Shown here: positions 3,261 through 39,192 of the stretch, one piece after another | Numbering within the stretch: the stretch's first letter is position 1 | Layout of the letters: each line of letters begins with the position of its first letter | From: Promethearchaeota archaeon | GTDB taxonomy: Archaea > Asgardarchaeota > Lokiarchaeia > Sigyniarchaeales > SOKP01 | Assembly (NCBI GenBank): GCA_048941285.1 | Contig: JBHLNS010000005.1 | Location: 1-64,000, forward strand | Direction of reading: 5' to 3' | Length of the DNA: 64,000 bases | Made by a program: the position numbers and the translations under genes | The notes under the pieces: generated by a model | The model's input: the letters and a program-made list of their open reading frames with translations, nothing else | Told to the model about the DNA's origin: nothing | Databases searched by the model: none

Positions 3261-4369
3261 TGGATAATAAAAGTGAAATTAAAAGCTTAAAGAAGCTCTC
3301 ATTGAAAAAACTTCGAGAAAAGGTAAACTTAGTAAGAGATCAATTACCAATAGATAAGAAAAAGGTAATTACTTATTCTAAGAATTTTACACTTTCAATT
3401 TCAAATTACTGTGTAAATCAGTGTGGTTATTGTCATTATAATTACAGAATTCCCAAATTTAATGGGGAATGTAATGTAATGCTACTTAATAATGAAAAGA
3501 TTGTTAAGATAACTCAAAAAGGGCTTAAATCCAATTGTAAAGAAGCTCTTATAATGTCAGGAGAACGTCCTGGAAGTTTTCTTGAGATTAAACAGGAATT
3601 AGAGAAATTAAATTATTCTAATTTTACTGAATTTGTAAAAGATATTTGTATTTATTTACTCGATCTTAACCTTTTACCTCATATCAACTTAGGTTATTTA
3701 ACTTTTGATGAAATGAAGGAATTAAAGAAATTTACTGCTAGTATGGGCCTAATGCTTGAAAGTACTAGTTTAAATCTATTTAATAAAGGGAGGGTACATG
3801 AATATTCGAACGGAAAATTACCAGAAAAACGATTGGAGCATATTAATAATGCTGGAAAATTGAAGATCCCATTTACTACAGGTTTATTGCTCGGCATAGG
3901 AGAATCTATTGAAGATGTTATAAAAGACATCCAAACAATCAAACAAATCAATACAAAATATAAGCATATTCAAGAAGTAATAATTCAGAATTTTGTAAAA
4001 AAAAAATTTATACCATACCAACCTAAAAAGACAATTTCTTTTAAAGAAATGCTTAAAATAACAGGATTAGCCCGAATTATTTTTCAAAATGATATTGCTA
4101 TCCAAATTCCTCCAAATCTTATCGTTGGTTTTGAAAAAGAGTTTATTGAGATGGGTATCGATGATTTTGGGGGAATTTCTCCTTTTACATTAGATTATAT
4201 AAATCCTGAAAACAAATGGCCTCAAATAGATAAATTATATAAAATTTGCAAGGATAATGGTTTTATTCTAAAAGAAAGACTCCCTATATATTATAATTTT
4301 ATAAGAAAAGAAGGATTTTGTTCAGAAAGTATTAAAAAAGTAATTGATAATATAAATTTAGATGATTAG
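3260..4369 (+). CDS. cofG: FO synthase subunit 1 (radical SAM)
   Basis: ITYSKN, CVNQCGYC, LLPHIN.G, SMGLMLE, IPFTTGLL.GIGE, EVIIQNF, QIPPNL and D.INPE..WP motifs. Confidence 0.92.
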   Translation: MDNKSEIKSLKKLSLKKLREKVNLVRDQLPIDKKKVITYSKNFTLSISNYCVNQCGYCHYNYRIPKFNGECNVMLLNNEKIVKITQKGLKSNCKEALIMSGERPGSFLEIKQELEKLNYSNFTEFVKDICIYLLDLNLLPHINLGYLTFDEMKELKKFTASMGLMLESTSLNLFNKGRVHEYSNGKLPEKRLEHINNAGKLKIPFTTGLLLGIGESIEDVIKDIQTIKQINTKYKHIQEVIIQNFVKKKFIPYQPKKTISFKEMLKITGLARIIFQNDIAIQIPPNLIVGFEKEFIEMGIDDFGGISPFTLDYINPENKWPQIDKLYKICKDNGFILKERLPIYYNFIRKEGFCSESIKKVIDNINLDD

Positions 4370-5492
4370 TCCTCAAATTTTTGAAAATATCAATCAAGAA
4401 GTTAAAAACATTTTGAAAAAGTCTTTAGATTTTGAAGAACTCAGCCCACAAGAAGCCTTAAAATTATTAAAAGTAAGGGGAAAAGAATTTTTTGCTTTAC
4501 AATATGTAGCTGATCGGGTATGTTTTGAAAAAAAGGATAATTTTGTTACTTTTATTATAAATAGAAATATAAATTTTACAAATATATGTTATCAAAGATG
4601 TAAATTCTGTTCTTTCAGTTTACCAGCTACACATCCCAAGGCTTTTTTACTCAATATTGAACAGGTTAGAGAAAAAGTGATCCAAGCAAAAGTATTTGGA
4701 TGTACAGAAGTTTGTATTCAAGGTGGTATAAACCCCAATTTAAAGTTTGATTTTTATTTAGATATTCTTAAATGTGTTAAAGAAATTGCTCCAAATATGC
4801 ATACTCATGCTTTTTCCCCCCAAGAAATATATTATATGTCGAAATTGTATGACAGTTCCATAGAAGATACTTTAAAGGAATTACAAAAAGTGGGCTTAGA
4901 TTCAATACCTGGGACTGCAGCAGAAATATTAGTAGATAAAATACGAGATATAATCTGTCCTAATAAAATCAATACTTCCCAATGGTGTGAAATCATAACT
5001 ATTGCTCATAAATTAGGAATTCCTACGACTTCTACCATAATGTATGGACATATTGAGACATTGCATGATAGAATTAGGCATCTAGAAATTTTAAAAGATA
5101 TTCAAAAAGAGTCTTACGGGTTTACCGAATTTGTTCCATTACCTTTTGTAAAAGAAAACCCAATTTTATCTCAACTCGAAAATTTTCCTTTAAATTATAG
5201 TTATGGGATGGATGACTTAAAACTATTCTGTGTTGCTAGATTATTCTTGAATAATTTCATTGAAAATATTCAATGTAGTTGGGTGAAATTAGGTCCAAAG
5301 TTTGCACAAATTACGTTAAATTATGGTGTTAATGACTTCTCAGGTACTTTAATGGAAGAAAATATATCAAAAAGTGCCGGTGCAGAATTTGGAGAATATC
5401 TATCTCCTGAGGAAATAATAACTATAATAACTGGAGCAGGAAAGAAACCAGCTCAAAGAGATACCATATATAATATTCTAAAATATTATTAG
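4362..5492 (+). CDS. cofH: FO synthase subunit 2 (radical SAM)
   Basis: NRNINFTNICYQRCKFC, PGTAAEIL, TIMYGHIE, IQCSWVKLG and GTLMEENIS motifs. Overlaps cofG. Confidence 0.92.
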   Translation: MISPQIFENINQEVKNILKKSLDFEELSPQEALKLLKVRGKEFFALQYVADRVCFEKKDNFVTFIINRNINFTNICYQRCKFCSFSLPATHPKAFLLNIEQVREKVIQAKVFGCTEVCIQGGINPNLKFDFYLDILKCVKEIAPNMHTHAFSPQEIYYMSKLYDSSIEDTLKELQKVGLDSIPGTAAEILVDKIRDIICPNKINTSQWCEIITIAHKLGIPTTSTIMYGHIETLHDRIRHLEILKDIQKESYGFTEFVPLPFVKENPILSQLENFPLNYSYGMDDLKLFCVARLFLNNFIENIQCSWVKLGPKFAQITLNYGVNDFSGTLMEENISKSAGAEFGEYLSPEEIITIITGAGKKPAQRDTIYNILKYY

Positions 5493-7483: not shown

Positions 7484-9055
7484 CTATTCATCTTGAATAT
7501 ACGGTTTACCAAAAATTAAATGCATTTCTGCCTTTTTTAATTCTCTCCCTAAATAATTCAAGTGATAGATATCCTTTGTTAAATTGTATTGAATTATTTT
7601 TTTGCTTAGAGCCTCAGCATTATCTCCTATAAACGTATGAATTAATAAGTCATCAATTGAGTAAAAAAGAACATAAATTTTTTTCAAATAATGATTCACA
7701 TAAATTCTAAAGTAGCCAGATTCATCAGGGATATAATCATGGGCATTTACATCTACTTCAATAATTTTTTCTTCATTTATTTCCGCCATCTCTTGGTTAA
7801 TTTTTCCTTTGGCTTTAAAGACTTTAATTCCTTGATTGATGGGCGGAGTATTTTTATATTTTGCTATATAATTTAATTTAACACTTTCTTTTAATTCTCT
7901 TACCCCTCCCATTAATTTAGCACTATGTTCAACTGTAAAAAGAATACCCATATCTAATTCTATTGAAATACTCGCTAAAAGGCCATTTATTCCTACTGAA
8001 TCAATATCCATAAGTTCCACTACGTTTGAAATTCCAAAAAATAATGGTAATTCATATTCTTTATATTTATTTTCAGCAACTTTCTTTTTATATAAAAAAT
8101 AAGCTTCTAAGGAATTAGTAATTCCGGGATTTATAGGGGTCTCTAATAATGGATCAGCAATTAATTTGGTATATCCCTTACTAATTAATTCTCTGGTTAA
8201 TTTAAATAAATTTTGGACTCTTGTTTCTGCATCTTTTGGAAAATATGCTTCCTTGATATTAGTAGGGAGTATAACAATAGGTATATTCTTAGGTATGTCC
8301 ATTAATTCCTTATAATTTCCAAGATCTAGACTTAAAATGAGATCCACATTTTCTTCTACAGCAGCATTTATTTCTTCTGGGATCATTGAATCGATGCTTA
8401 TTAACACGTCATAATTCTCCCTGATTAATTTAATTATTTTTTTAATTCTTTCGGGTTTCGGTTTATTAGATATACACCCAATATCAATAATATCTGCTCC
8501 AGAATTGATATAATGCTTTACTTTTTTTAGAATATTTTCATTGCTTTTATCTGGACAATTTACTATTTCAGCAATTATAGGAGGTGGTAAATTCCTTCCA
8601 ATCATTATATTAGATTTTTCTTGATTAATATAATACGTATGAATCCCTAAATCATTAACTGCTGAGTTTAATTGTTCTCTCACTATTTTTTTAAATTCAT
8701 TTTCTCCCGAGATTTCTAATAATATATTTGCGGGTATTATATTAGATAACTCGAGCTTTTCCAAATTATTTAGAGTGTAAGGTAAATCAGATGCGAATTC
8801 TGGCCCCTTCCTAATTTTTATTGAATATCTCTCTTCTAACTCACTAGAATCCCACTGTATAAAACCGGGCAATAATACTAAATCATATTTAGAGGTTTTA
8901 ACTTTTTCTAAAATATTAGAAACGCTCATTTCTGTGAGAAATGCTGATATTGATATTGGAGCTTTTATTATATCTATTGTATGCTTCTTGATAGGAATTA
9001 CAACTTTTTCAATTGTATTATAACTTTGTTGACCAGTAATTATAAGAATTTTAAT
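7484..9055 (-). CDS. Dihydropteroate synthase-like protein (methanopterin pathway, MJ0107/MptH type) with a C-terminal DUF4346-like domain
   Basis: GADIIDIG, ISIDS, ADPLL, NVVEL.D.DSVGIN and HLNYLGREL.KAE motifs. The frame extends from ATG 8929 to ATT 9055, adding the family-like N-terminus (M)KILIITG...ISAFLT. Confidence 0.85.
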   Translation of the reverse strand: MKILIITGQQSYNTIEKVVIPIKKHTIDIIKAPISISAFLTEMSVSNILEKVKTSKYDLVLLPGFIQWDSSELEERYSIKIRKGPEFASDLPYTLNNLEKLELSNIIPANILLEISGENEFKKIVREQLNSAVNDLGIHTYYINQEKSNIMIGRNLPPPIIAEIVNCPDKSNENILKKVKHYINSGADIIDIGCISNKPKPERIKKIIKLIRENYDVLISIDSMIPEEINAAVEENVDLILSLDLGNYKELMDIPKNIPIVILPTNIKEAYFPKDAETRVQNLFKLTRELISKGYTKLIADPLLETPINPGITNSLEAYFLYKKKVAENKYKEYELPLFFGISNVVELMDIDSVGINGLLASISIELDMGILFTVEHSAKLMGGVRELKESVKLNYIAKYKNTPPINQGIKVFKAKGKINQEMAEINEEKIIEVDVNAHDYIPDESGYFRIYVNHYLKKIYVLFYSIDDLLIHTFIGDNAEALSKKIIQYNLTKDIYHLNYLGRELKKAEMHLIFGKPYIQDE

Positions 9056-10142
9056 CTAAATCACTTATCAGCTTTTCTTTTTCAAATGGGATAAATATGT
9101 CATCTAATATTGACCCTGTAGCATCTTTGATTTTTAAGTTTTTAATAATCGGTTCGAATCTTCCTCCTAGAATCCCATTAGCAATGAAAGCAGCTCCTTG
9201 AGCGGCTCTTTTTGCTATTTGACTGAAAGATTTCATTACTCTTACAGGAGCAACATTTTGTAACCCATTAATCATTTTTTCTCTTAAATATGCTAAATTT
9301 GCACCCCTACCAGCTAATAATATCTCTTTAATATTATTTTTATTTGAATATGAAGATGAAATTCCAAAAACGGCTTTTGTTACACTTGATAAATAAGCTT
9401 TTAGCGCAATTTCAGTCTGTTCATCTTTCTCTGCTAAAAGTGTTATCTCTTTTAAACTCATATCAGAGTATCCAGAGATATATGCTACACCACCTTTATA
9501 GATGTTTCTCTTGTGAATATTTTTAATTAAGTAAGCTAATTCTCCATCAAGGCTACCGCATGCACGAAAGCCCATTATATTCGATCCACCAATACCATCA
9601 ATGATTTGACCATTTTCAATTGCTAAGACTGCTGTGAAACCATAACCGATCTCAACCAAAATAAAATTTGTTTCTTGAGGAGTTATATTAAATCTTTCCA
9701 TTTGATCCCTAATTCCTGTAACTGCCGTACAAAGTTTATCAGCGGTTCCCATATCAATTTTATTTATTTTTCGATATTTAGGGACGGTGGATAGATGCTT
9801 AACTCCGGGAACAATAATTCCTGGAATATTTTGAGCTTTTATTAACCTTAAAACCTCCCCAAGCCCAACTAATTTGTCTTTTTCCTTTTGATCAAATTTT
9901 AATAAAGTAAAAAAGATATCTTGTTCTGTCAATTCTTGAACATTTTTTAAAGGAAGCCCAAATCCGCTTGGAGCAACCATTAGATCAATATCCTTTACAG
10001 TTGTAATTATTGTAATAGCTTTTTGTGGATCTTTAATGAGCTCTTTAGTGGATAAAGATGTGTCTAAAATTATTTTATTATCTTCTAAACCAAAGAAATC
10101 CCAACTTTTTGATCCTGGGTCAATACCAAGAACTCTATACAA
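9051..10142 (-). CDS. DUF1464 family ASKHA-fold (butyrate kinase-related) protein
   Basis: GIDPGSKSWD, APSGFGLP, KINKIDMGTADK, GQIIDGIGG, LDGELAY and AAQGAA motifs. Confidence 0.8.
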   Translation of the reverse strand: MYRVLGIDPGSKSWDFFGLEDNKIILDTSLSTKELIKDPQKAITIITTVKDIDLMVAPSGFGLPLKNVQELTEQDIFFTLLKFDQKEKDKLVGLGEVLRLIKAQNIPGIIVPGVKHLSTVPKYRKINKIDMGTADKLCTAVTGIRDQMERFNITPQETNFILVEIGYGFTAVLAIENGQIIDGIGGSNIMGFRACGSLDGELAYLIKNIHKRNIYKGGVAYISGYSDMSLKEITLLAEKDEQTEIALKAYLSSVTKAVFGISSSYSNKNNIKEILLAGRGANLAYLREKMINGLQNVAPVRVMKSFSQIAKRAAQGAAFIANGILGGRFEPIIKNLKIKDATGSILDDIFIPFEKEKLISDLD

Positions 10143-10370: not shown

Positions 10371-10895
10371 GTTAAAGTTTATGTGTGTAAAATATGTGGG
10401 GAAGCTTATATTGGAGAAGAGGCACCTAGTCGATGTCCCTTTTGTGGAGCATATAAAAAATATTTTATAGAATCAACAGAATATGATGATACTGGTGCTT
10501 GGGATGTTGAATTAAATAAAAAAGATAAAGAAAATGCTGAGAAAGCTTTAGAAGTTGAGATATCTAACAATATTTTTTATAAATGTGCCAGTAATAAGAC
10601 TCCAGAATTAGATGGTCAGAAGATATTCAAGATTCTTGCGAAGGTAGAAGCTGAACATGCAGCTGTTTGGAAGAAAATATTAAAGTTAGATCAGTTAGAT
10701 TTCCCTAAATATGATAAATGTGCAGCAGAATACAAACCTAATCTAGAAGAATCACATAGTAGAGAGGATAGAGCTATAAAGTTCTATGGGAAAGCTGCTG
10801 CTGAAGCTAAAAATCCACGTGTAAAGGAGATATTTGAAGCCTTTGTAGAGGTCGAGACAGACCATCTTCATCTCTCTGAAGCAAGGCTTAAATAA
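10371..10895 (+). CDS. Reverse rubrerythrin (N-terminal rubredoxin, C-terminal ferritin-like domain)
   Basis: CKICG...CPFCGA followed by ExxH diiron motifs (EAEH, ETDH). Start uncertain (GTT 10371 or GTG 10383). Confidence 0.85.
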   Translation, partial: VKVYVCKICGEAYIGEEAPSRCPFCGAYKKYFIESTEYDDTGAWDVELNKKDKENAEKALEVEISNNIFYKCASNKTPELDGQKIFKILAKVEAEHAAVWKKILKLDQLDFPKYDKCAAEYKPNLEESHSREDRAIKFYGKAAAEAKNPRVKEIFEAFVEVETDHLHLSEARLK

Positions 10896-11065: not shown

Positions 11066-12574
11066 ATGAACCAAAGACCAAACATCATTTATATCCTGAA
11101 TGATCACCAAGCTTTTTATGGCCATGGTAAAATGGTTGGAGGTCCAAAAATTCATAGACCAAACTTCGGAAAATTAGCAAAAGAAGGTATAGAATTTACC
11201 CAAGCATATACTGCTTGTCCATTATGTGGACCAGCAAGGAGAACTATGCTTACAGGGTTATTTCCTCATAATCATGGTGAAATTCATAATGAGACAAACC
11301 ATAAATACGATAAGGAAGTATATTTAAATATTCTTGCAGATGCAGGATATAAAAATTATTATTTTGGAAAATGGCATGCAGGAAGGGGTAGTGCCCTAGA
11401 ATTTCAATGTGAAGGATATAGTAGCGGTTCTAGATATGGAAATCCATATGTTTCACGTGAATATAGAAATTATTTAAAAAAGTATAATCTTCCCTTTATC
11501 CAAGTAAAAATTGAAAAGAATTTTTTAGGTTCTGATCATCCCTATACAAAAGCTCTTGGAATACAAGAAGGTGAACTTCACAATCCTAAATTTCCTATAT
11601 TATCACAAGAAACTACAGGGATAATGACTACGCCTAAAGAAACTCATGAAGCTTTTTTTTTAGCTTCGCTAGCCTGCAAAAAGCTACAAGAAATTGCAAA
11701 AAGCAAAAAATCAAAACCATTCCATTTACGCTTAGATTTTTGGGGACCTCATTTCCCATATTTTGCAACTCAAGAATATTTAGATTTATATAATCCAAAA
11801 GATATCCCAGAACTTCCTAGTTTTAGGAATAGTTTACAAGATAAGCCAAATATATATAAATTAAGCCATCATTATCCCATAAGTGAAAATGGTAAATTAT
11901 TATATCCAAATCCACTACCTTGGACAGAATGGCAAAAAGTATTAGCACTAAATTATGCTCAACAAACTCTAATTGATGAAGCCGGTGGAATGGTTCTTAA
12001 TACATTAGAAGAGTTAGGTTTATTGGACAACACAATCATTATTTGGGCTAGTGATCACGGTGATGCGGTTGGATGTCATGGTGGTCATTTTGATAAAGAT
12101 AGTTTTATGCCTCAAGAAATGATACGTATAGCAATGGTTATTAGTTATCCTGATCACATTCCTAAGAGTGAAAATTGTGATAAACTTGTTAGCAATCTTG
12201 ATTTAGCTCCCACATTTCTGGATGCTGCGGGATTGAATTTTAATGAGAATATTGATGGGGAAAGTTTAATACCAATATGTACAGAAAAAGATGTTCTATG
12301 GCGTGATGATTTAATGTGTGAAACCCATGGCCATTGGACTAATCATATAGGACGGTTAGTTGTAACAAATAGATATAAATACATTTTTAATGATGAGGAT
12401 ATGGACGAATTATATGATTTGAAAGAAGATCCATTTGAGTTAAAGAATCTGATTAATATTAAAGAATATAAAGATGTATCTAATGATATGAACCGACGTC
12501 TAAAGAACTGGCGTCAAAAAACGGGAGATAATATAGGAAAAAATTTGATAAAAGGCAAAAAACTGATGAAATAG
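11066..12574 (+). CDS. Cys-type (formylglycine-dependent) sulfatase
   Basis: PNII.ILND, CGPARRTMLTG (CxPxR), GKWH, PH.PY, SDHGD and ELYDLKEDP.E motifs. No obvious signal peptide. Confidence 0.92.
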   Translation: MNQRPNIIYILNDHQAFYGHGKMVGGPKIHRPNFGKLAKEGIEFTQAYTACPLCGPARRTMLTGLFPHNHGEIHNETNHKYDKEVYLNILADAGYKNYYFGKWHAGRGSALEFQCEGYSSGSRYGNPYVSREYRNYLKKYNLPFIQVKIEKNFLGSDHPYTKALGIQEGELHNPKFPILSQETTGIMTTPKETHEAFFLASLACKKLQEIAKSKKSKPFHLRLDFWGPHFPYFATQEYLDLYNPKDIPELPSFRNSLQDKPNIYKLSHHYPISENGKLLYPNPLPWTEWQKVLALNYAQQTLIDEAGGMVLNTLEELGLLDNTIIIWASDHGDAVGCHGGHFDKDSFMPQEMIRIAMVISYPDHIPKSENCDKLVSNLDLAPTFLDAAGLNFNENIDGESLIPICTEKDVLWRDDLMCETHGHWTNHIGRLVVTNRYKYIFNDEDMDELYDLKEDPFELKNLINIKEYKDVSNDMNRRLKNWRQKTGDNIGKNLIKGKKLMK

Positions 12575-12920: not shown

Positions 12921-15428
12921 ATGAGTAAAATTAATGGAAACATTAGTGATCATAAAAGAGGACCTAAATTTCCTATTGCTAAACCTCACAACCTTTCTCC
13001 TCGTTCTCAATGGCTTAGAGATTATTACTTTAAAGGAGTAGAGCGAGAATGGAATAATCAATATATGCCATTTACTACTGGGACAGACTGGGATCTAATT
13101 TTTGAGGAAGGCAATATGTATATTGTTCCTGAATCTTATTTATATTTGGGAATAAAGGGTAAGGGAACAATAGAAAGCTCAATGAGATCTATGGCTCTGA
13201 CTATCGAATTACCTGAGGGGTTTTGGGAATTATCCCTTCCAGAACGTAGAATTATTTTTTTTGAAAGAGCGATATTAGATTATATTCCACAAGAGATTAT
13301 TTCTGAGAATGATCTAATAGCAGGTGGAAGATTTCAAACACAATTAAGTAAATGTTTTACTGAAAAAGAAGCTAAGAAATTTTGGAAAGAAAATTTAAAG
13401 ATTCGAAGAGCTATCTTTAAATTCCATAACTCTGGTTTCGGAAATTTAGGCGCTGTTGGTGGACATCTCATTCCTGATTATGAGACAATAATAAAAAAAG
13501 GGTTTAAATTTGTACATGAAAAAGCTAAAAAAACATACGAACAACTAAGCCAAAAAGAAAAAAGAAGTCTTAAAGGTCAAGAACTCAGAGCAATGATGAG
13601 AGCAGCAGAAATCCCTAAAAAATTAGCACAAAAATATGCTGAAGAATGCAGAAATTTGATAGGAGAAGCATCATCTCCGGAAAGAGTAAAGGAGCTTCAA
13701 CAAATGGCTCAAAACTTGGAACGTGTTCCTTGGGAGCCAGCTGAAACATTTTGGCAAGGAGTTCAATCATTATGGTTGATTCATATGTTAACTATTTCAG
13801 AAGAGTCATATCCGGGTGCAGGAACATCCTTTGGTAGAACTGATCAATATTTATGGCCTTTATATAAAAAAGATGTTATTGAGGAGAACAATATTACAAA
13901 GGATTTTGCAAAAGATATTTTGGGCTGTTTTTGGTTTCATTGTAATACTATTTATGATGCTCAAATAATGGTTGGAAGGCAAGGGATCACATCTGGTTTT
14001 GGTCAATTAATGACTTTATCTGGTTGTGGTCTGCATGGAGAAGATCTTACAAACGAATTAACGTATACAATTTTAGAAGTTATTGATGAATGGTCTCCGA
14101 TTCTAGAACCTAAGCCAAATGTTCGTTTGCATAGAAATTCTCCTGAAAAGCTCTTAAATATAATAATAGAAATGATATCGAGGTCTCAAGGTGCTCCATT
14201 TTTAATTAATTTTGATGAAAGAGCTATAGCGGGATTACTTAGAGAAGGTATTCCAAAAGAGGATGCTTGGAATTATGCCTGTGTTGGGTGTTTAGAAAAT
14301 ACAATGCAGGGAAACGATCGTTCAGGTACAGTAAATTGTAATCCAAACTTAGCCAAGAGTATTGAACTGACATTGTGGAATGGGAAAAATATGCCTGGGA
14401 ACTTTAAGAAACCATGGACAAAGAAGGGAGAACAGATAGGCCCCAAATTTGGAGATCCTGAAACCTTTGCATCATGGGATGAGTTCTGGAATGCTTGGAA
14501 AACCCAAATTAAACATATTATAAAATATACAGTATCCATATACAATATGTCTGAAAATTTTCGCTCAAATTACATTCCAACTCCATATGTATCGACTTTG
14601 GTTCAAGGATGTATTGAAAAGGGTTTGGATGTAAGAAATGGAGGCCCTGAATTACGTTTTATTACAATTGAAGGCGTTGGATTTGCAACAACAGTAGATT
14701 CATTATTAGCTATTAAAAAATTAGTTTTTGAAGATAAGAAATATAATATTTCACAAATCAAAGATGCCCTTCTCAACAATTTTGAAGGAGATAAATATGC
14801 AGTCATGCAATCAGTATTAAAAAATAAAGCTCCAAAATATGGAAATGATGAAGATGATTCAGATGAGATGGCTAGAAAAGTAATGGAAATATGGGCTGAA
14901 GAAACCTGGAAATACAAAACGCCTACAAATTTTCAATTTCGACCAGGGATGCTATCTTGGAACTATTGGGCTGGAGCTGATGCAGGTCTTACAGTTGCAA
15001 CTCCAAATGGTAGAAAGTCTGGAACATTTTTGTCAAATGCAATTTGTCCTAGTGATGGAGTAGACAAAAAGGGTCCTACAGCTGTTACTAATTCGGTTGG
15101 AATTGCAATTGGTGGAAAAAAAGACCAGGGAGAATATAATAATTATCTTCCAAATGGAGCAAGTCATACTATAACATTTAATCCAAGTATTCTTAGAGAT
15201 CCAGAACATAAAGAGAAATTTAAATCATATTTAAAAGGATATACAGAGAATGGTGGGACTTGTTTACAAGTAAATATGTTAGATGTAGATTTACTTAAAG
15301 ATGCTCAAAAACATCCGGAAAATTATCCAAATTTATTAGTTAGAGTAACAGGTTATAATGCCTACTTTACAGCAATAGGAAAAGAACTTCAAGATGAAAT
15401 AATAGCTCGAGAATCCCATAGAATGTAA
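12921..15428 (+). CDS. Glycyl radical enzyme (PFL2-like) of unknown substrate
   Basis: SFGRTDQYL, Cys loop YACVGCLE, PKYGND, ATPNGRK.G, GPTA and the C-terminal glycyl motif LLVRVTGYNAYF. Confidence 0.92.
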   Translation: MSKINGNISDHKRGPKFPIAKPHNLSPRSQWLRDYYFKGVEREWNNQYMPFTTGTDWDLIFEEGNMYIVPESYLYLGIKGKGTIESSMRSMALTIELPEGFWELSLPERRIIFFERAILDYIPQEIISENDLIAGGRFQTQLSKCFTEKEAKKFWKENLKIRRAIFKFHNSGFGNLGAVGGHLIPDYETIIKKGFKFVHEKAKKTYEQLSQKEKRSLKGQELRAMMRAAEIPKKLAQKYAEECRNLIGEASSPERVKELQQMAQNLERVPWEPAETFWQGVQSLWLIHMLTISEESYPGAGTSFGRTDQYLWPLYKKDVIEENNITKDFAKDILGCFWFHCNTIYDAQIMVGRQGITSGFGQLMTLSGCGLHGEDLTNELTYTILEVIDEWSPILEPKPNVRLHRNSPEKLLNIIIEMISRSQGAPFLINFDERAIAGLLREGIPKEDAWNYACVGCLENTMQGNDRSGTVNCNPNLAKSIELTLWNGKNMPGNFKKPWTKKGEQIGPKFGDPETFASWDEFWNAWKTQIKHIIKYTVSIYNMSENFRSNYIPTPYVSTLVQGCIEKGLDVRNGGPELRFITIEGVGFATTVDSLLAIKKLVFEDKKYNISQIKDALLNNFEGDKYAVMQSVLKNKAPKYGNDEDDSDEMARKVMEIWAEETWKYKTPTNFQFRPGMLSWNYWAGADAGLTVATPNGRKSGTFLSNAICPSDGVDKKGPTAVTNSVGIAIGGKKDQGEYNNYLPNGASHTITFNPSILRDPEHKEKFKSYLKGYTENGGTCLQVNMLDVDLLKDAQKHPENYPNLLVRVTGYNAYFTAIGKELQDEIIARESHRM

Positions 15429-15474
15429 ATTTTATTTTCTTTTCTGAATTTGTTTTATATGGTGACTTAATTTA

Positions 15475-16473
15475 ATGATTGATTCAGTTCGGGGATTTAT
15501 CTTTGAAATTCAAAAGATGTCTACTGAAGATGGTTCAGGTATTAGAACTACAGTATTTTTCAAACAATGTCCTTTAAGATGTAGTTGGTGTCATAACCCA
15601 GAATCAATTTTGAAGGAGCCACAATTAGAATGGCTCAAACATAAATGCATAGGGTGTCGAACTTGTATAGATATTTGCACGCAACATTCATTATCATTTA
15701 ATGAAGAAGGATTACAAATTGATAGAAAAAAATGCAATGGGTGCGGAAGATGTGCTGAAGAGTGTCCTAGTACAGCGTTGCATATGTTTGGAGAGTGGTG
15801 GAATTTAGAAGATTTATTCTATGAGATAAATAAAGATAAAATTTATTATACTGAGTCAAATGGTGGCATTACAGTTTCTGGGGGAGAACCGACAGTTCAA
15901 TCTGATTTTATTGTAGAATTTTTCAAGAAATGTAAAAATAATGGCATTTCAACAGCATTAGATACATGTGGATATGCATCAAGAAAAATATATGAGAATT
16001 TATTACCATTTGTGGATCTAATACTTTTAGATATTAAAGAAATTAACAGTGAAAGACATAAAGAGTTTACTGGTGTCGCAAATGATTTGATTTTAGAGAA
16101 TGCTATTTGGATTTCTAAGGACATAAGAAAAAGGAAGAAGGAGATGTGGATTAGAACTCCAATTATCCCAAATTATACTGGTACAGATGAAAATATAAAA
16201 GGTATTGGGGCTTTTATAGTCAATGAATTAGAAAATATTCCTGATCGTTGGGATTTATTAGCTTTCAATAATTTATGTATCACGAAATATGAGAGATTAA
16301 ATATGGTTTGGCCTCTTGAAAATTTCTCATTGATATCCAAGGAAGAAATGGAGCATTTTCTAGAAATTGCAAAATCCACAGGCGTTAGGAACGCAAAGTG
16401 GTCTGGTTTAACAAAAAAAGATAATTATAAGAATAAAGAAAATCATGAAAAATTAAAACCATCAACATGTTAA
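15475..16473 (+). CDS. Glycyl radical enzyme activating enzyme (radical SAM with a ferredoxin insert)
   Basis: DG.GIRTTVF, CPLRCSWCHNPE, two CxxCxxCxxxC motifs, SGGEP and DTCG. Confidence 0.93.
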   Translation: MIDSVRGFIFEIQKMSTEDGSGIRTTVFFKQCPLRCSWCHNPESILKEPQLEWLKHKCIGCRTCIDICTQHSLSFNEEGLQIDRKKCNGCGRCAEECPSTALHMFGEWWNLEDLFYEINKDKIYYTESNGGITVSGGEPTVQSDFIVEFFKKCKNNGISTALDTCGYASRKIYENLLPFVDLILLDIKEINSERHKEFTGVANDLILENAIWISKDIRKRKKEMWIRTPIIPNYTGTDENIKGIGAFIVNELENIPDRWDLLAFNNLCITKYERLNMVWPLENFSLISKEEMEHFLEIAKSTGVRNAKWSGLTKKDNYKNKENHEKLKPSTC

Positions 16474-16519
16474 AACAATTATTATGATATTTATTTAATC
16501 CAAAAAATAGTGTACAAAT

Positions 16520-17404
16520 ATGAGTAGAAAAAAAAATATTGATGATTGGTCATCTGAAGCTTCAGAAGCAGCTATTGAATTCACTCAACCTGGAATGATG
16601 TTGAAATTAATCGGTACTATAGATAACCGAGGATGGCCCCACATTACATTTATTGCTATGAATCGAATCATCAACAAAAAAGAAGTAGTATGGGGTGCTT
16701 TCACTGAAGGAACTAGTAAGAAAAATATTAAGGATAACCCTAAACAAGGAATATTATACATGACCGCGAATATACCGTTTAAATTTCTACAACTTAAAGC
16801 AGATTTCAATCACACTTCAACTGAAGGAGAAGAATTAGAGTTTTTTAACAATTCTGATTTATTTCGATATTTTACATATTATAGGGTTCACACTGCATAT
16901 TATAATAATATTATTGCTTCTTCTCCCGTTAAAGATTTGCCTCTATTTGGTATAGTAAAAGGAATTATAAAAAATATTATAGGAAAAGGTGCTGCAAAGA
17001 CTAAACTTAATGAAAAACGATTAAATGTAATAGGATATGATTTATTTACTGCTACTATTGGTGTACGTGCAATTAGTTATATTGATCCTTCAGATGGCTA
17101 CCCAATTATAATTCCTTGTATTCAACTTCAAGCCGCAGATCATAATAGATTAGTATTCCCTCCTTCAATACTAAAAAATGATTTGTACAAGATTCCGACA
17201 GATTCTAAAGTTGCAGTGTTTGGAATGAATTTTGATTTTGCGAGCCAAGTAGTGAAGGGAACATTCACAGGTTTCAAAAAGTTTAGAGGAATTAAATTTG
17301 GAATTATTGAAATTGAAGAAATCTATAATAGTTCTCCTTTGATTGTAGGTAAAATTTATCCTGAAATTGAGACATTACAAAAGGTAACAAAATTTGATTT
17401 ATAA
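16520..17404 (+). CDS. Pyridoxamine 5'-phosphate oxidase-like (split-barrel) protein, probably two tandem domains
   Basis: Two repeats of a T/Y-I-D-x-x-G-W/Y-P motif, SKKNIKDNPK, and repeated YNN/YNS ends. Confidence 0.6.
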   Translation: MSRKKNIDDWSSEASEAAIEFTQPGMMLKLIGTIDNRGWPHITFIAMNRIINKKEVVWGAFTEGTSKKNIKDNPKQGILYMTANIPFKFLQLKADFNHTSTEGEELEFFNNSDLFRYFTYYRVHTAYYNNIIASSPVKDLPLFGIVKGIIKNIIGKGAAKTKLNEKRLNVIGYDLFTATIGVRAISYIDPSDGYPIIIPCIQLQAADHNRLVFPPSILKNDLYKIPTDSKVAVFGMNFDFASQVVKGTFTGFKKFRGIKFGIIEIEEIYNSSPLIVGKIYPEIETLQKVTKFDL

Positions 17405-17443: not shown

Positions 17444-18154
17444 TTGACAAATCTTATGTCTTTTATTCCAAAAGATTTTGGTCTGAAGAGAGATTATTTG
17501 TATGAAATTATAGCTACAACGTATTCCATCACTAATGATGGATTAGAAATTAAGCCTAATACTTCTTGTATGGGGATTAGAGTGTTAGAAGGGCAGCAAA
17601 TACAAATGACACCTTTCTATAGCACTACTACTTATAAAAATTTGAGAGAAAATAGTATTATTGCCATTAATTTTGTTGATGATGTGTATTTATACGCGTT
17701 AGCTGCACTAAAAGAAAAAGAATCTCCAATAGGATTAATTGAATTTCCTTCAGAATTTTATGATTTCATACATTTGAAATCTCGTTCGATGGATGTGCCT
17801 TTTATAAAGAAAGCTTGGGGAATTTTAATAGGAGAAGTGTTAAAAGAACTTCAAAAATCTAAAAAAAGTAATTTAGGAGAAATCATTATTCCGATCTTTA
17901 AATTAAACATTATTTTTGCTGAGAAATTTCAAGAATCTCATAAATTATTAAATCGAGCAGAAAATCTAGCTTTAGAAGCTATAATTTTAACAACTCGTTT
18001 AAAGGTTGCAAAAGAAAACAATAATCCTACTTTATTTTCTAAAATCTATGAAAAAATATTAGATTATATAGATATGATTAAACGATTTGGAAAGAATGAA
18101 AATGCATTAAAAGCTATAGAATTAGTTAATAATTATATTCTTCATTTTTCATGA
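17444..18154 (+). CDS. DUF447 family protein
   Basis: YEIIATT, PN...MGI, STTYKNL and NRA.NLALEA.I..TR motifs. Confidence 0.75.
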   Translation: MTNLMSFIPKDFGLKRDYLYEIIATTYSITNDGLEIKPNTSCMGIRVLEGQQIQMTPFYSTTTYKNLRENSIIAINFVDDVYLYALAALKEKESPIGLIEFPSEFYDFIHLKSRSMDVPFIKKAWGILIGEVLKELQKSKKSNLGEIIIPIFKLNIIFAEKFQESHKLLNRAENLALEAIILTTRLKVAKENNNPTLFSKIYEKILDYIDMIKRFGKNENALKAIELVNNYILHFS

Positions 18155-18534
18155 ATCTTTTCAATAAACATAAGTGGATATTCTAATTGATCCACCCATT
18201 CTACTTTGGCTACTACATGTATTGATTTGTATTCAATAACAACCTCAGCTCGGATCATTTTTCCATTTATTTCATCATAATCGTATTCAGATTCTTTAGT
18301 TCCAGAAATTTTTTCCCGATCTAAATGAATTCTAACAGACTTTACATAAGGTTGACAGGAAATGGCGGATTCAATACCTTTTTCTAGAGATGCAATTATT
18401 CTTTCATTATTTCTAATAGGGATTCCGCTAAGAATATGATACAATGCGCCTAATTTAATACCCGTTTCAAAACAAGCTCTTTCTCTTTCGCTTAAATCAG
18501 ATGAAAAATAAATTCTATCATTGGGTGTAGGCAT
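18142..18534 (-). CDS. mptD: Archaeal dihydroneopterin aldolase
   Basis: RERACFETGIKLGALYH, IESAISCQPYV and LEYPLMF motifs. Confidence 0.88.
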   Translation of the reverse strand: MPTPNDRIYFSSDLSERERACFETGIKLGALYHILSGIPIRNNERIIASLEKGIESAISCQPYVKSVRIHLDREKISGTKESEYDYDEINGKMIRAEVVIEYKSIHVVAKVEWVDQLEYPLMFIEKIHEK

Positions 18535-18540
18535 TTATAG

Positions 18541-19551
18541 TCAATCCATATATTCTATTTTGGCTCCAATATTATTAGGTTTGCAAATATAGATATGTCC
18601 TCCTCCATTTTTTTGATTCTTTTGAACTTCTTTTAGTAACATTTCTGCCTCTATGTCTGATTCTACAATGCCAACTACGCTTGGTCCAAAAGATGACATT
18701 CCATAAGCTTTTAGTCCATACTCTTCAAAAAAATGTAGGAGATCTTTAACAATCTGATGTTGTAACTCAATCTCAATTTTTTTAAATCCAATATTCTGAA
18801 TTCTTTTTAAACCTTCACCAAAGCACTTTAAATCATTTTTTATGATACCAGGTAATATTTTCATAATTACTTGATGTGATACTTCATTTACTTCACTTCT
18901 AGGAATCGGTGCATAATTTTGAAATACACTGATCTCCTCGTCCCCAAAAGCACCTTTTTTCACATCAGGTATCACAAGCACAAATCTCCAATTTTCAGGT
19001 ATGTCATGTCTAGATATAGTTAAGGCAGGATTGGCTGAAATTGAGGCAGATGAGGGTAAAAAGGTTTCTTTTTCTTGACCTCTTCCGAAATCATGCCCTC
19101 CATCTAAAATAAATCCGCCAGTTTTAAAACCTTTCCATCCAATTCCAGAAGTTCCCCCTCTTTCAACTAATTTAGTTAGGTCTTCATGTGTTAAATGATC
19201 GACATTCTTTAATTTCGTTATAGCTGTAGATATAGCTAAAGATAATTGGGTTTTTGAGCCTAATCCTACATGTGAGGGAAAGTATCTTTTAAGATTGAAA
19301 TGAAAATTTTTATTACTAATATTAAATCTTTTAAATACTTTTGAAGCTATTTCATTAATAACTTCAATTGATTCTCTATAATATTTATGAGCCTCGATTT
19401 TAAATTCTTTAGCACTATTAGATGCTTCAAACACAACGTTTGGACGGTCTAACATAAGACCAATACCACCGTCAACTCTACCAGTATATCCATTCTCGTC
19501 TATTAAAGAAAGATGGATGCGACATGGAGTTGTTATTTTTAGAGAAGTCAT
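18541..19551 (-). CDS. mptG: Beta-ribofuranosylaminobenzene 5'-phosphate (RFAP) synthase, GHMP fold
   Basis: TPCRIHLSLID..G..GRVDGGIG, HVGLGSKTQ, RGGTSGIG, GGFILDGGH and GMSSFGP motifs. Confidence 0.92.
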   Translation of the reverse strand: MTSLKITTPCRIHLSLIDENGYTGRVDGGIGLMLDRPNVVFEASNSAKEFKIEAHKYYRESIEVINEIASKVFKRFNISNKNFHFNLKRYFPSHVGLGSKTQLSLAISTAITKLKNVDHLTHEDLTKLVERGGTSGIGWKGFKTGGFILDGGHDFGRGQEKETFLPSSASISANPALTISRHDIPENWRFVLVIPDVKKGAFGDEEISVFQNYAPIPRSEVNEVSHQVIMKILPGIIKNDLKCFGEGLKRIQNIGFKKIEIELQHQIVKDLLHFFEEYGLKAYGMSSFGPSVVGIVESDIEAEMLLKEVQKNQKNGGGHIYICKPNNIGAKIEYMD

Positions 19552-19657: not shown

Positions 19658-21061
19658 TTGAGTAATTTGAGCGATTTAGAAGGTTTAACTCGAAATTTAA
19701 TGAAAAAAGGATATTCTAAACAACAAATTCTTGAGAGATTAGTAAATGAATATAATGATTTTAAAAATATTGATAAGGATTTAGCTTATAAATATGCCGA
19801 AGCAATCTTATTAGAATGCCAAAAAAGTGATATTAGTTCAATTGAAAACCACTTTATCAAAAATTTATTAAATATAAATGAAGCGAATGTCACTGTAGGG
19901 AAACAAGGAGTAGGATGTCGAGGTGCAGGTGACTTTTTTGTTCATAAATTAATTGCTGAATTGTCTGAAACAGTTCAAAAACCATTTTTAGCTCCTAGTT
20001 CTTTAGATGATGCGGGTGCGATAAGAATATCTAGTATAAGGGGATTTAATGGAGAAAGATTTATTTGTGATGACTTAATAATTGCTACTAAAATGGAAGG
20101 AATACATTCCAGATTAAGTGATTTTCCTTTTATTTGTGGATTTCATGTTACTCGTGCCGCATTGAGAGATTTGTATGTTAAGGGCGCTAAACCAATTTCG
20201 ATTATGGTTGATATTCATCTAGGAGATGACGCAGATGTGGGAAAATTATTTGATTTTATGGCAGGAATATCAACAATCGCGGAACTTACAAAAGTCCCTA
20301 TTACCGCAGGTTCAACTTTAAGGATCGGTGGTGATATGGTTATAGGGAACAGACTTGTAGGAGGCGTCGCAGCAGTGGGTATTGCTACAGAAAAATTGTA
20401 TGCTAGAAGGAATATTAAACATGGAGATAAAATTCTGATGACTGAAGGAGCTGGAGGTGGAACAATTACCACCACTGCAATTTATTCTGGGAATCATGAA
20501 GTTGTAAATGAAACTATGAATATCAAATTCCTTAAAGCCTGTGAAATTATTTTAAACTCGGATTACAGGGATGAAATTAGAGCCATGTGTGATGTTACCA
20601 ATGGAGGTTTAAGAGGAGATTTATATGAAATTAATTATGAAGCAAATTGTGGAGTAAACATTTATGAGGAAAAAGTGAAAAATCTTGTAAACACTATAGT
20701 CATAAACATGTTAGAAAACGTAGGAGTGGATTATTTAGGAGTTTCTCTTGATTCTCTTCTAATATATTGTTCTGAATCTGCATCAAAAAAAATTCTTACT
20801 GATCTTATAAAAAATAATATTAAATGTGATGAAATTGGTTATGTAGATGATTCAAACCAAGTTTATATAACTTATAAAGATCAGGAGAAAAAAGAGGTTC
20901 TCCCAAAATTCAGGGAGTCTGCTTACACTAAGATAAAGCAAGAGATTGGAGAGGAGATTCCCGAAAACCTTCATATAATGGAAAAAGAAATCGAAGAAGC
21001 AGCTTCAGAAGCCTTAAAAAAGAGAAAACAGATAATTGAATATATTGAAAATCAAGAATAA
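19658..21061 (+). CDS. AIR synthase-related (PurM/HypE/SelD fold) protein
   Basis: DLEG, GVGCRGAGDFFVH, DDAG, HSRLSDFP, LRD..VKGA and DVTNGG.RGD motifs. Confidence 0.8.
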   Translation: MSNLSDLEGLTRNLMKKGYSKQQILERLVNEYNDFKNIDKDLAYKYAEAILLECQKSDISSIENHFIKNLLNINEANVTVGKQGVGCRGAGDFFVHKLIAELSETVQKPFLAPSSLDDAGAIRISSIRGFNGERFICDDLIIATKMEGIHSRLSDFPFICGFHVTRAALRDLYVKGAKPISIMVDIHLGDDADVGKLFDFMAGISTIAELTKVPITAGSTLRIGGDMVIGNRLVGGVAAVGIATEKLYARRNIKHGDKILMTEGAGGGTITTTAIYSGNHEVVNETMNIKFLKACEIILNSDYRDEIRAMCDVTNGGLRGDLYEINYEANCGVNIYEEKVKNLVNTIVINMLENVGVDYLGVSLDSLLIYCSESASKKILTDLIKNNIKCDEIGYVDDSNQVYITYKDQEKKEVLPKFRESAYTKIKQEIGEEIPENLHIMEKEIEEAASEALKKRKQIIEYIENQE

Positions 21062-21068
21062 TTGAAAA

Positions 21069-21899
21069 TTAATTTAAATTGAAATCTAAAGCTTCATTCA
21101 TTGAGCCAGATCTAAATCCTTCAAGATCAATTGTTATGTAAGTAAAACCAAGCTCTTTAAATCTTTTTTTAATTAAATTTAGATTATTAGTTGTCAAGAT
21201 TTTGGTTAAATCCTCAATCAAAAATTCAATCCGGGCTAGATTAGGTTCATGCAGTCTTACTCTTAATTGTTTTAAATTAAAAGAATTTTTAAGAAATTTT
21301 TCTGCGTCTCTTATCATTATTAATTTATCTTGACTTATTTTTTGACCATAAGGAATTCGAGATGAGAAACATGCCATCGAAGGCTTAGATTGAACATTTA
21401 AATTAAAATGTTTACTTATCTCTCTTATTTCTTTTTTGTTTATTTTATATTCAATATAAGGAGTTAAAATATTTAATTCTTTTAAAGCTTGCATCCCTGG
21501 TCTATAATCCGAAAGATCGTCCATGTTTGAGCCATCTAATATTAAATCAAAATTTTTTGAATTTCTTATAGCAAGAATATCAGTATATAATCCCATTTTG
21601 CAAATATAACATCTATTTGAAGGATTGCATTGGAAATCTGGATCTTGCAAGGGATCTCGTTCAATAATCATATGATTAATACCATATTTTTGAGCAAATT
21701 GGGAAGCTTCTTCAATTTCTTCTTCAGGATAAAGAATTGATGCTTCAGTTATAAGTAATGTATCTTTAGCGTATTTTTTAGAAAGAAATGCTAAAAGTGA
21801 ACTATCTACACCACCTGAAAAAGCTACTATAATCTTTTTATCTTTCAAAAAGGCTGTAAGAGCTTCTAATTTTGAATTTAGATCCTTAGACAATCCCAT
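21069..21899 (-). CDS. larE: LarE-like ATP-dependent sulfur transferase (PP-loop)
   Basis: AFSGGVDSS, RCYICK, DGSN.DD..DYRPG, ACFSSRIPYG and GFRSGSMN motifs. Confidence 0.88.
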   Translation of the reverse strand: MGLSKDLNSKLEALTAFLKDKKIIVAFSGGVDSSLLAFLSKKYAKDTLLITEASILYPEEEIEEASQFAQKYGINHMIIERDPLQDPDFQCNPSNRCYICKMGLYTDILAIRNSKNFDLILDGSNMDDLSDYRPGMQALKELNILTPYIEYKINKKEIREISKHFNLNVQSKPSMACFSSRIPYGQKISQDKLIMIRDAEKFLKNSFNLKQLRVRLHEPNLARIEFLIEDLTKILTTNNLNLIKKRFKELGFTYITIDLEGFRSGSMNEALDFNLN

Positions 21900-39187: not shown

Positions 39188-39192
39188 TTTAT

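Follow-up and report, generated by a model that had tools for sequence, protein, structure and literature searches.

An unassigned glycyl radical enzyme and its tandem split-barrel partner form a conserved three-gene unit in Asgard archaea and on bacterial-type contigs

What reaction is carried out by a glycyl radical enzyme (GRE) whose gene is inherited together with that of a split-barrel protein, and what does the latter contribute? This question is raised by a 64,000-nucleotide stretch of Promethearchaeota DNA (contig JBHLNS010000005.1, positions 1 to 64,000; hereafter 'the window'), in which a GRE gene is followed by genes for its radical SAM activating enzyme (activase) and for a 294-residue tandem split-barrel protein, here called the partner (Table 1). 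The two gaps within this trio measure 46 nt each, and a sulfatase gene ends 346 nt before the GRE. The window has a G+C content of ~30%, and the closest relatives of its proteins are found in metagenome-assembled genomes (MAGs) labeled Promethearchaeota, Lokiarchaeota and other Asgard archaea. An earlier note, made from the sequence, had described the locus as an uncharacterized GRE operon in which desulfation might be followed by radical elimination and then by flavin- or F420-dependent redox chemistry on the product. Here we report that the trio is a real, widely inherited GRE system with a partner of a kind not described for the superfamily. We are somewhat more inclined than not to read it as a self-contained module, consisting of GRE, activase and partner, with chemistry of the Cys-X-Glu eliminase or isomerase type.

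Species-representative genomes were queried with the partner sequence, which yielded 43 loci, all of them in Asgard MAGs. The activase gene lies directly upstream of the partner gene in 36 of these and within 0.5-2 kb in another 3, which makes 39 out of 39 loci with room on that side (4 have none). A GRE of the same family is encoded upstream of the activase-partner pair in 26 of the 33 loci with sufficient sequence, the other 10 being too short to judge; it is directly adjacent in 18 and separated by insertions of 1-7 kb in 8. Genes inserted between GRE and activase encode thiolase, hydroxyacyl-CoA dehydrogenase, enoyl-CoA hydratase, molybdopterin oxidoreductase, an NMO-like protein, a GPH/MFS_2 transporter and an amidohydrolase. 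Across MAGs labeled Loki-, Hod-, Hermod- and Heimdallarchaeota, close relatives of the GRE are 71-89% identical to it, and those of the partner 69-87%.

The unit is also found far from the Asgard archaea. A search of 1.84 billion cluster representatives (E<=0.001) recovered 239 clusters of partner homologs, mostly of ~280 residues and 21-37% identical, and a metagenome scan with a 14-row alignment of the distant members led to 80 further loci, where the partner is 29-36% identical, the G+C content is 44-67% and the neighboring genes are bacterial (Lgt, RecJ, GntR regulators). We refer to these contigs as bacterial-type, an assignment that rests on Atlas labels (Chloroflexota in the case of one distant partner cluster) and on neighbors typical of bacteria. 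Upstream of the partner, 59 of the 80 loci carry a GRE of the same family, 48-60% identical to that of the window, and the remaining 21 have less than 2.5 kb of upstream DNA. The GRE gene is located beside the activase gene in 48 loci, directly beside the partner gene in 8 and set apart by an insert in 3; in at least three loci the activase gene is found further downstream instead of between the other two. Usually the bacterial-type operon consists of GRE, activase and partner alone, sometimes preceded by genes for an MFS transporter (7 loci), a GntR/FCD regulator (5) or a class-III aminotransferase (5). Two metagenome loci (L047, L053) have tandem GRE-activase pairs, with a paralogous GRE (31-32% identical) and its activase directly upstream of the family unit.

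In order to follow GRE and partner through the phylum, 201 genomes were searched for both, GRE tallies being counted among the matches listed. A close GRE (>=66% identity, N-terminus included) was found in 36 genomes and a close partner (>=45%) in 36, with both present in 34. In G049, which has the GRE only, the contig stops 157 nt past this gene; in the two genomes with the partner only, the distance between the partner and the start of its contig is 2.5 kb (G135) and 22 nt (G183). For more distant sequences, the counts are 41 genomes with a GRE (41-51% identical), 25 with a partner-like open reading frame (ORF; 20-30% identical, E<=1e-10) and 24 with both; in 21 of these 24 the two share a contig and lie ~1 kb apart. 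A closer look revealed partner-like ORFs in G038 and G103 as well, and a fragment in G194. In the family of the window's own genome, 31 of 40 sampled genomes carry the partner. Two families of the phylum that have other GREs only (GRE matches in 7 of 10 genomes of f22 and 8 of 19 of f12) gave no partner match at all (0/10 and 0/19), and the window genome itself encodes six PFL-like GREs and two full-length activases, but a single partner. The partner is tied to this one GRE family rather than to GREs or activases as a whole. The split-barrel gene being a conserved neighbor in Asgard archaea and on distant bacterial-type contigs alike, the finding that the earlier note had named beforehand as its refutation, a GRE of a characterized class beside a split-barrel gene that is not conserved there, was not made.

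The five other GREs of the window genome are located on contigs C82, C32, C65, C29 and C42 (loci L130-L134). That of C82 is a bona fide trans-4-hydroxy-L-proline dehydratase (HypD; 1312.7 bits for a cut-off of 1100), with no activase gene beside it; the C29 protein has a GCVG Cys loop that lacks the Glu, and the C42 protein an NNCM loop and its own activase. In some Asgard loci a 251-residue ORF without Pfam match is present between GRE and activase or just upstream of the activase (L004:8103-8858, L022:8136-8894, L010, L018), and a 42% identical copy of it exists elsewhere in the window genome (C94).

The window GRE carries the expected domains (Pfam PFL-like PF02901, 433.7 bits; Gly_radical PF01228, 81.7 bits). 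Its Cys loop, residues 453-459, reads ACVGCLE, as had been noted, and differs from the adjacent Cys-Cys pair of pyruvate formate-lyase (PFL); the Glu stands two residues after the catalytic Cys (C457-L-E459). The glycine motif RVTGYNAYF starts at residue 808 and places the radical on G811. Alignment of 29 family members, drawn from bacterial-type as well as Asgard contigs, revealed that H182, C457, E459 and G811 are invariant, and that the family possesses its own invariant continuation of the Cys loop, ENTMQGNDRSGTVNCN, together with a PGMLSWNYW strand. The additional Cys three residues before C457, which the earlier note had pointed out, is not a feature of the family: C454 is retained in 16 of the 29 sequences and replaced by Pro in 10, and we rejected it as a second catalytic Cys, since it is not conserved. 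The published fingerprint of PFL-like GREs, RVxG[FWY]x6-8[FL]x4Qx2[IV]x2R (as stated in PMC13450708), is not matched in its strict form, the sole departure being the [FL] position, occupied by Ile819 in the window GRE (RVTGYNAYFTAIGKELQDEIIAR from residue 808); 27 of the 29 members have Ile there and the other 2 Val.

The PFL-like match begins only at residue 179. The first 180 residues are strongly conserved within the family, bacterial-type members included, with W31, L32, R33, Y35, W44, N46 and others invariant in the 29 sequences, and their layout differs from that of the five paralogs of the same genome. We considered an 'extra' N-terminal domain and rejected it, the length being approximately that of glycerol dehydratase and only the sequence different. 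Helices at the N-terminus form the dimer interface of GREs, according to a recent review (PMC13450708).

None of the NCBIfam equivalog models is reached by the GRE. The best is HpsG NF048011 with 391 bits, followed by HypD NF043068 (383.8 bits for a cut-off of 1100), NF048009 of the same HpfG/HpsG pair (359.9; the cut-off is 1000 for both, and the pair stands for the sulfonate-cleaving GREs, with IslA by analogy) and CutC TIGR04394 (355.5 for 1050); the PFL2-3 subfamily model TIGR01774 gave 440.3 bits, its cut-off being 678.2. Because all curated models remain far below their cut-offs, the sequence places the GRE outside every characterized class, in agreement with its first description as uncharacterized. 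As its C82 paralog passes the HypD model and the window GRE fails it, the latter is a different enzyme.

Of the enzymes with a solved structure, the one closest to the GRE in sequence is the B12-independent glycerol dehydratase of Clostridium butyricum (DhaB1/DhaB2 system; 1r8w, 324.1 bits, ~26% identity over GRE residues 181-835), with CutC, Archaeoglobus fulgidus PFL2 and propanediol dehydratase close behind. An AlphaFold2 model of the GRE (mean predicted local distance difference test, pLDDT, of 79, with values below 50 in the loops of the catalytic Cys and the radical Gly and in three more at the active site) superposes on the dehydratases with TM scores of 0.73-0.78, and on eliminases and isomerases, which all score alike, with 0.69-0.78. 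The glycerol and propanediol dehydratases (5i2a/5i2g, 9rco-9rcr) are thus the best matches in both sequence and fold, and share with the window system the Cys-X-Glu motif, a His at the place of His164 and an activase with ferredoxin insert; yet the N-terminal 180 residues cannot be aligned with theirs and, unlike the window unit, they have no split-barrel partner. In the HMMER alignment, H182 and E459 correspond to His164 and Glu435 of glycerol dehydratase, in which Glu435 deprotonates the C1 hydroxyl and His164 protonates the leaving C2 hydroxyl, as described in the same review, where Cys-X-Glu is given as the motif kept in 1,2-eliminases and isomerases (PMC13450708). The other Cys-X-Glu enzymes, namely the eliminases HypD, CutC, IslA/IseG and HpsG/HpfG and the isomerases YbiW, PflD and HplG, have the same fold and motif, and a common mechanism is expected up to hydrogen abstraction; the Asp of the CutC GGD loop is replaced by His182 in the window GRE.

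The activase is well defined, with 318.4 bits in TIGR02494 (cut-off 174.35), a CX3CX2C radical SAM motif at residue 32 and two ferredoxin-type CX2CX2CX3C clusters at residues 58 and 87; the ferredoxin insert that had been proposed for it is real.

The partner proved more difficult to place by sequence, and no Pfam or NCBIfam match was obtained at E<=0.001. Its AlphaFold2 model, built from 27 homologs, has a pLDDT of 84, and residues ~9-142 superpose (Foldseek, VIA) on more than 50 entries of FMN (flavin mononucleotide)-, F420- and heme-binding split-barrel proteins with Z values of 12.2-8. The closest are Swol_0183 (3in6; VIA Z 12.2), HupZ (5esc, 7kpz; 11.6), the F420 reductase MSMEG_3380 (3f7e; 11.0) and the FMN-binding protein of Desulfovibrio vulgaris (1axj; 10.8), with 115-132 residues aligned and 11-17% identity. 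HupZ was picked up weakly by the partner family profile (E 0.002), and PF01243 is precomputed on only 5 partner homologs among the 120 matches listed. Profiles of the N- and C-terminal halves align with each other (hhalign 90.5%, E 1.4e-6, 80 columns), and the protein can therefore be described as a fused pseudo-dimer. The two-domain PNPOx-like character proposed at first thus holds at the level of the fold. The above proteins form homodimers of a single domain with 120-150 residues, whereas the partner is fused, with a diverged second lobe and a conserved tail.

Conserved motifs of the partner, kept at ~30% identity, are mostly located in the N lobe (PH 40-41, GxFxxGxSK ~59-67, RY 116-117), others being DGYP in the C lobe and YNSxP...IYP in the C-terminal tail. 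This tail (residues 272-288) is modeled at pLDDT below 50 in spite of its conservation, and may be a docking element. The partner has a single Cys and is therefore not an Fe-S subunit. Co-folding from alignments of partner residues 8-294 with GRE residues 136-835, i.e. without the family-specific N-terminal 135 residues, gave a score of 0.00 in two runs that had no controls.

How does such a protein compare with the small proteins known from other GRE systems? The HPAD gamma, BSS beta/gamma and MASS beta/gamma/delta subunits are, like the partner, small proteins that are encoded and inherited together with a GRE. They are HiPIP-like [4Fe-4S] or rubredoxin-like, whereas the partner is a putatively GRE-binding double split barrel with one Cys. 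The passage on accessory subunits in the 2026 GRE review lists Fe-S (HiPIP-like) and rubredoxin-like subunits, with no flavoprotein among them, and calls their roles 'enigmatic at present' (PMC13450708). The statement of the earlier note that no characterized GRE has such a partner stands with respect to that passage. LssP, a putative pyridoxamine 5'-phosphate oxidase, is encoded and expressed in the operon of limonenylsuccinate synthase and is reported as 'without clear function' (PMC12583861). LssP resembles the partner in being PNPOx-like, a likeness by description only, but its GRE adds fumarate and has Fe-S small subunits. Our literature search returned no description of a GRE with a split-barrel partner, LssP being the only PNPOx-like protein mentioned in a GRE operon. 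A further relative of interest is the archaeal PFL-like GRE PFL2 of Archaeoglobus fulgidus (2f3o; 310.1 bits, ~27% identity), which differs in its Cys loop (DGCVE) and for which we know of no split-barrel partner; its function is debated, as noted in the review (PMC13450708).

The gene upstream of the GRE encodes a Cys-type S1 sulfatase, as suggested previously: the domain, the CGPAR motif (C/S-x-P-x-R) and a maturase in the genome were all found. The domain match starts at residue 5, which leaves no room for a signal peptide, and the protein is thus predicted to be cytoplasmic. Formation of formylglycine in Cys-type sulfatases without oxygen requires an anaerobic maturase, and the radical SAM/SPASM enzyme encoded further downstream in the window (Table 1) therefore serves the sulfatase rather than the GRE. 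In addition to two other full-length sulfatase-domain genes, which brings the total to three, the window genome has five weak or partial matches. Of the 42 Asgard loci with room, 26 have a sulfatase gene next to the unit: 21 immediately 3' of the partner gene (in one case on the opposite strand), 3 immediately 5' of the GRE gene and 2 at a greater distance downstream. The upstream type, as in the window, and the downstream type are paralogs with 27-29% identity, and no closer copy of the downstream type is found in the window genome; two paralogs in two positions indicate that a sulfatase was brought next to the unit on at least two separate occasions. The solved structures closest to the window sulfatase are a GlcNAc-6-sulfatase (153.5 bits) and one that bears the name choline-sulfatase (142.1); an exo-2S-iota-carrageenan sulfatase ranks lower. 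The downstream type is closest to an unassigned sulfatase-family protein (147.4); taken together, both types are closest to carbohydrate sulfatases, with low scores. The sulfatase is a real but lineage-specific companion, which lies outside the conserved core and probably feeds the unit.

Two gene arrangements around the sulfatase and its maturase deserve mention. At L022:10978-16679 and in 20 similar Asgard loci, a co-oriented block 3' of the partner comprises genes for sulfatase, an NMO-like FMN protein (which shares ~10 nt with the end of the sulfatase gene), a YdjM-like membrane protein and H+-pyrophosphatase, often followed by MFS, GNAT and aldo/keto reductase genes. In the window, the maturase, which has a C-terminal SEC-C motif, adjoins two GFO/IDH/MocA sugar-type oxidoreductases and a TauE/SafE sulfite-exporter-like permease (37922-40296, and 40352-41272 on the minus strand); this region may represent a second piece of sulfated-sugar metabolism.

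These data are consistent with the following scheme, drawn by analogy with characterized GREs. The activase would install the glycyl radical on G811, as in the established GRE mechanism, from where it would pass to C457 as a thiyl radical that abstracts a hydrogen atom from the substrate. Most likely, E459 as base and H182 as acid would then assist the cleavage of a C-O (or C-N) bond beside a hydroxyl group, the GRE acting as would a 1,2-eliminase/dehydratase or a member of the isomerase class. The substrate would be a small hydroxylated molecule, none of the known GRE substrates, and the variable neighbors (carbohydrate-type sulfatases, GPH/MFS transporters and, in a single lineage, a galactokinase-like kinase) suggest an imported compound, either derived from a sugar or polar in some other way. 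In the window genome and many Asgard relatives, as a lineage-specific add-on, a cytoplasmic sulfatase, once matured by the anaerobic enzyme of the window, would probably supply the alcohol substrate from a sulfate ester. The partner, a fused pseudo-dimer with one conserved site in its N lobe, would act specifically with this GRE family; it is most likely an accessory or redox partner with a flavin-type cofactor. That it is a bound subunit or close redox partner of the GRE is our tentative choice, held with a little less than even confidence.

A number of observations weigh against this scheme. The positions of Ser282 and Asp447, which bind the diol in glycerol and propanediol dehydratase, are Gly301 and Val471 in the GRE, and the analogy with the dehydratases stands on two residues. 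Split-barrel proteins may also bind heme, or nothing, and the partner has no Pfam match to narrow this down. As to the unit itself, its tightest link in Asgard loci is that between activase and partner; seven loci have no family GRE in the 6-9 kb available, and eight more have inserted genes. G083, a genome that is 100% complete, has a close GRE and gave no partner by protein or profile search, and in two closed genomes that belong to another family, G012 and G023, the GRE (45-47% identical) is accompanied by no more than a single-domain barrel gene at 20-24 kb. The lack of a tandem partner in these two indicates that it is not obligatory across the widest GRE family. The sulfatase is absent from 16 Asgard loci (1 more has no room), and of the 56 metagenome loci that offer enough sequence a single one has it, at a distance and on the other strand. 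Desulfation followed by elimination, suggested earlier as the chemistry of the locus, can accordingly not be its core function.

The alternative that best survives concerns the independence of the partner: it could be a free flavin- or F420H2-dependent enzyme that is not a subunit and that converts the GRE product, for instance by reducing an enone, an imine or an aldehyde-derived species, just as pyrroline-5-carboxylate reductase follows HypD. F420-dependent reductases are among the fold matches (3f7e, as above, and Rv2074/5jab with Z 9.7), the window includes CofG and CofH, whose products make F0, and the partner gene comes last in most bacterial-type operons, the usual place of a downstream pathway enzyme. 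A fused pseudo-dimer with one conserved lobe would nevertheless be unusual among such reductases, and so would the conserved tail, modeled as unstructured, which is more like a docking element; moreover, nothing points to F420 synthesis in the bacterial hosts. We regard this explanation as rather unlikely.

Alternatively, the partner could work with the activase, as a dedicated flavin electron carrier that reduces its [4Fe-4S] clusters, in the way that flavodoxin reduces the PFL activase of E. coli. The adjacency of activase and partner, complete in the 39 loci described above, persists in 15 loci where the GRE is remote or not found within 6-9 kb, and with six GREs, including a HypD without its own activase, for two activases, the activase of the window may serve several of them. 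The small FMN-binding protein of D. vulgaris is one of the close folds, and the closed genome G012, which has no tandem partner, encodes a flavodoxin ~1 kb upstream of its GRE. However, it is the GRE family that the partner tracks: the second activase of the window genome has none, no partner match came from those families of the phylum whose GREs are of other kinds, and in 8 metagenome loci the partner gene comes immediately after that of the GRE, no activase gene intervening. The partner also lacks a domain that would take electrons from NAD(P)H or ferredoxin. An electron donor to the activase is therefore, in our view, an unlikely role, and some other function altogether is more unlikely still. 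The G012 locus (L129; C1:2494000-2507000) has no activase or tandem partner near its 45% identical GRE, which is followed by genes for a galactokinase-like GHMP kinase and an alpha/beta hydrolase.

A third explanation concerns the GRE itself, which could be a pyruvate formate-lyase, as most database names have it ('pyruvate formate lyase family protein', 'formate C-acetyltransferase' for close relatives), or an alkyl- or benzylsuccinate synthase, single-Cys Asgard GREs with 29-33% identity to AssA/BssA being called 'Ass/Bss' in a Hermodarchaeota paper (PMC8163825). That reading was the only one returned by our literature search on Asgard or Lokiarchaeota GREs; in PMC12747264, GREs are named solely among the references. 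The PFL model TIGR01255 gave 87.3 bits for a cut-off of 994.2, and the Cys-Cys pair is absent. As for the succinate synthases, the activase reaches 180.3 bits in the BssD model TIGR04003 (cut-off 496.45); MasD (219.6) and TutD (177) rank below all eliminases, with the lowest scores of the non-PFL GREs, in the search of solved structures, which glycerol dehydratase leads with 324 bits; and no ORF fits into the 46-nt gaps, so that a gene for a small Fe-S subunit is missing. Cys-X-Glu is, besides, the mark of eliminases and isomerases in the review (PMC13450708). In view of this motif and of the model scores, the Ass/Bss reading is disfavored for this GRE family, and we consider both assignments very improbable.

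Finally, the genes around the unit had to be considered (Table 1).

Table 1. Genes of the window that are discussed in the text, in order of position.
Feature	Position	Strand	Remarks
MptA GTP cyclohydrolase	367-1305		
Archaeal riboflavin-pathway pyrimidine reductase	2592-3257	+	
CofG	3260-4366	+	384.5 bits (cut-off 209)
CofH	4362-5489	+	459.5 bits (cut-off 426)
Methanopterin-type genes: DHPS-like, DUF1464	7484-10142		
Rubrerythrin	10383-10895	+	Rubredoxin-like domain N-terminal (reversed order)
Cys-type S1 sulfatase, predicted cytoplasmic	11066-12574	+	Pfam Sulfatase PF00884, 142.2 bits; SGSH_C; CGPAR at residues 54-58
GRE, unassigned family, 835 aa	12921-15428	+	H182, catalytic C457, E459, radical G811; family-peculiar N-terminal ~180 aa
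GRE activating enzyme (radical SAM), 332 aa	15475-16473	+	Two-cluster ferredoxin-like insert; C-terminal tail ~30 aa
Partner, tandem split barrel (PNPOx/HupZ/FMN-binding-protein-like), 294 aa	16520-17404	+	Predicted pseudo-dimer (AlphaFold2 fold, hhalign of halves)
Methanopterin-type genes: DUF447, MptD-like aldolase, beta-RFAP synthase	17444-19551		beta-RFAP synthase 340.7 bits (cut-off 328)
DUF447 (first gene of the preceding row)	17444-18154		Linked to the aldolase gene, not to the trio, in loci with insertions behind the partner
Anaerobic sulfatase-maturating radical SAM/SPASM enzyme	36471-37676	-	TIGR03942, 401.3 bits (cut-off 349.45)

A role of the unit in methanopterin biosynthesis, to which the position of the trio between DHPS-like/DUF1464 and DUF447/MptD-like aldolase/RFAP synthase genes in 18 of the 43 Asgard loci might point, is highly improbable, as the other Asgard loci and all 80 bacterial-type loci lack these genes and DUF447, where genes have been inserted after the partner, keeps with the aldolase gene and not with the trio. 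DUF447, itself a split-barrel-type family, was for this reason rejected as a fourth member of the unit. In other Asgard loci the trio is surrounded by sulfatase, NMO-like and H+-pyrophosphatase genes without methanopterin-type ones, and CofG, CofH and the methanopterin genes stay behind where the unit sits elsewhere. We thus read the methanopterin and F420 context as inherited gene order, not as function. The F420 genes noted near the GRE are indeed present, and since CofG and CofH score above the NCBIfam cut-offs, the genome of the window probably makes the deazaflavin chromophore F0; their nearness, however, is no evidence for a link of the unit to F420, given that they remain in place when it moves. 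The rubrerythrin gene is directly upstream of the sulfatase-GRE region, in the same orientation, and is kept there in several related loci. Beyond the methanopterin genes, positions 19658-21899 encode a 467-residue AIR-synthase-related protein, which passes none of the equivalog models, and a LarE-type sacrificial sulfur transferase (274 bits for a cut-off of 150); these two adjoin methanopterin genes in 9 Asgard loci.

Returning to the three-gene module, a more specific proposal can be formulated, which we consider attractive but unlikely: the double split barrel could be a flavin- or deazaflavin-bearing GRE subunit that passes electrons to or from the substrate radical. If so, this would be the first flavin-coupled GRE and would carry out net redox chemistry rather than plain elimination, and would, in Asgard archaea, complete a cytoplasmic pathway whose first step is the desulfation of imported sulfated sugars. 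By title or abstract, our literature search found no GRE-sulfatase locus of such a kind, and three metatranscriptome contig sets searched at 80% likeness yielded only four short, spurious matching pieces.

All PFL-like GREs with a characterized function to date are bacterial, and whole clades are without validation, as the review states (PMC13450708). The GRE family described here is highly conserved across Asgard MAGs and recurs in sediment bacteria. To our knowledge, each newly assigned GRE has so far led to an anaerobic reaction of ecological or medical weight, such as those of choline, hydroxyproline, isethionate and anhydro-sugars. The sulfatase link provides a concrete handle with which to narrow the search for the substrate, and its identity would fill a gap in Asgard metabolic models, in which these genes are now read as pyruvate formate-lyases or hydrocarbon-activating enzymes.

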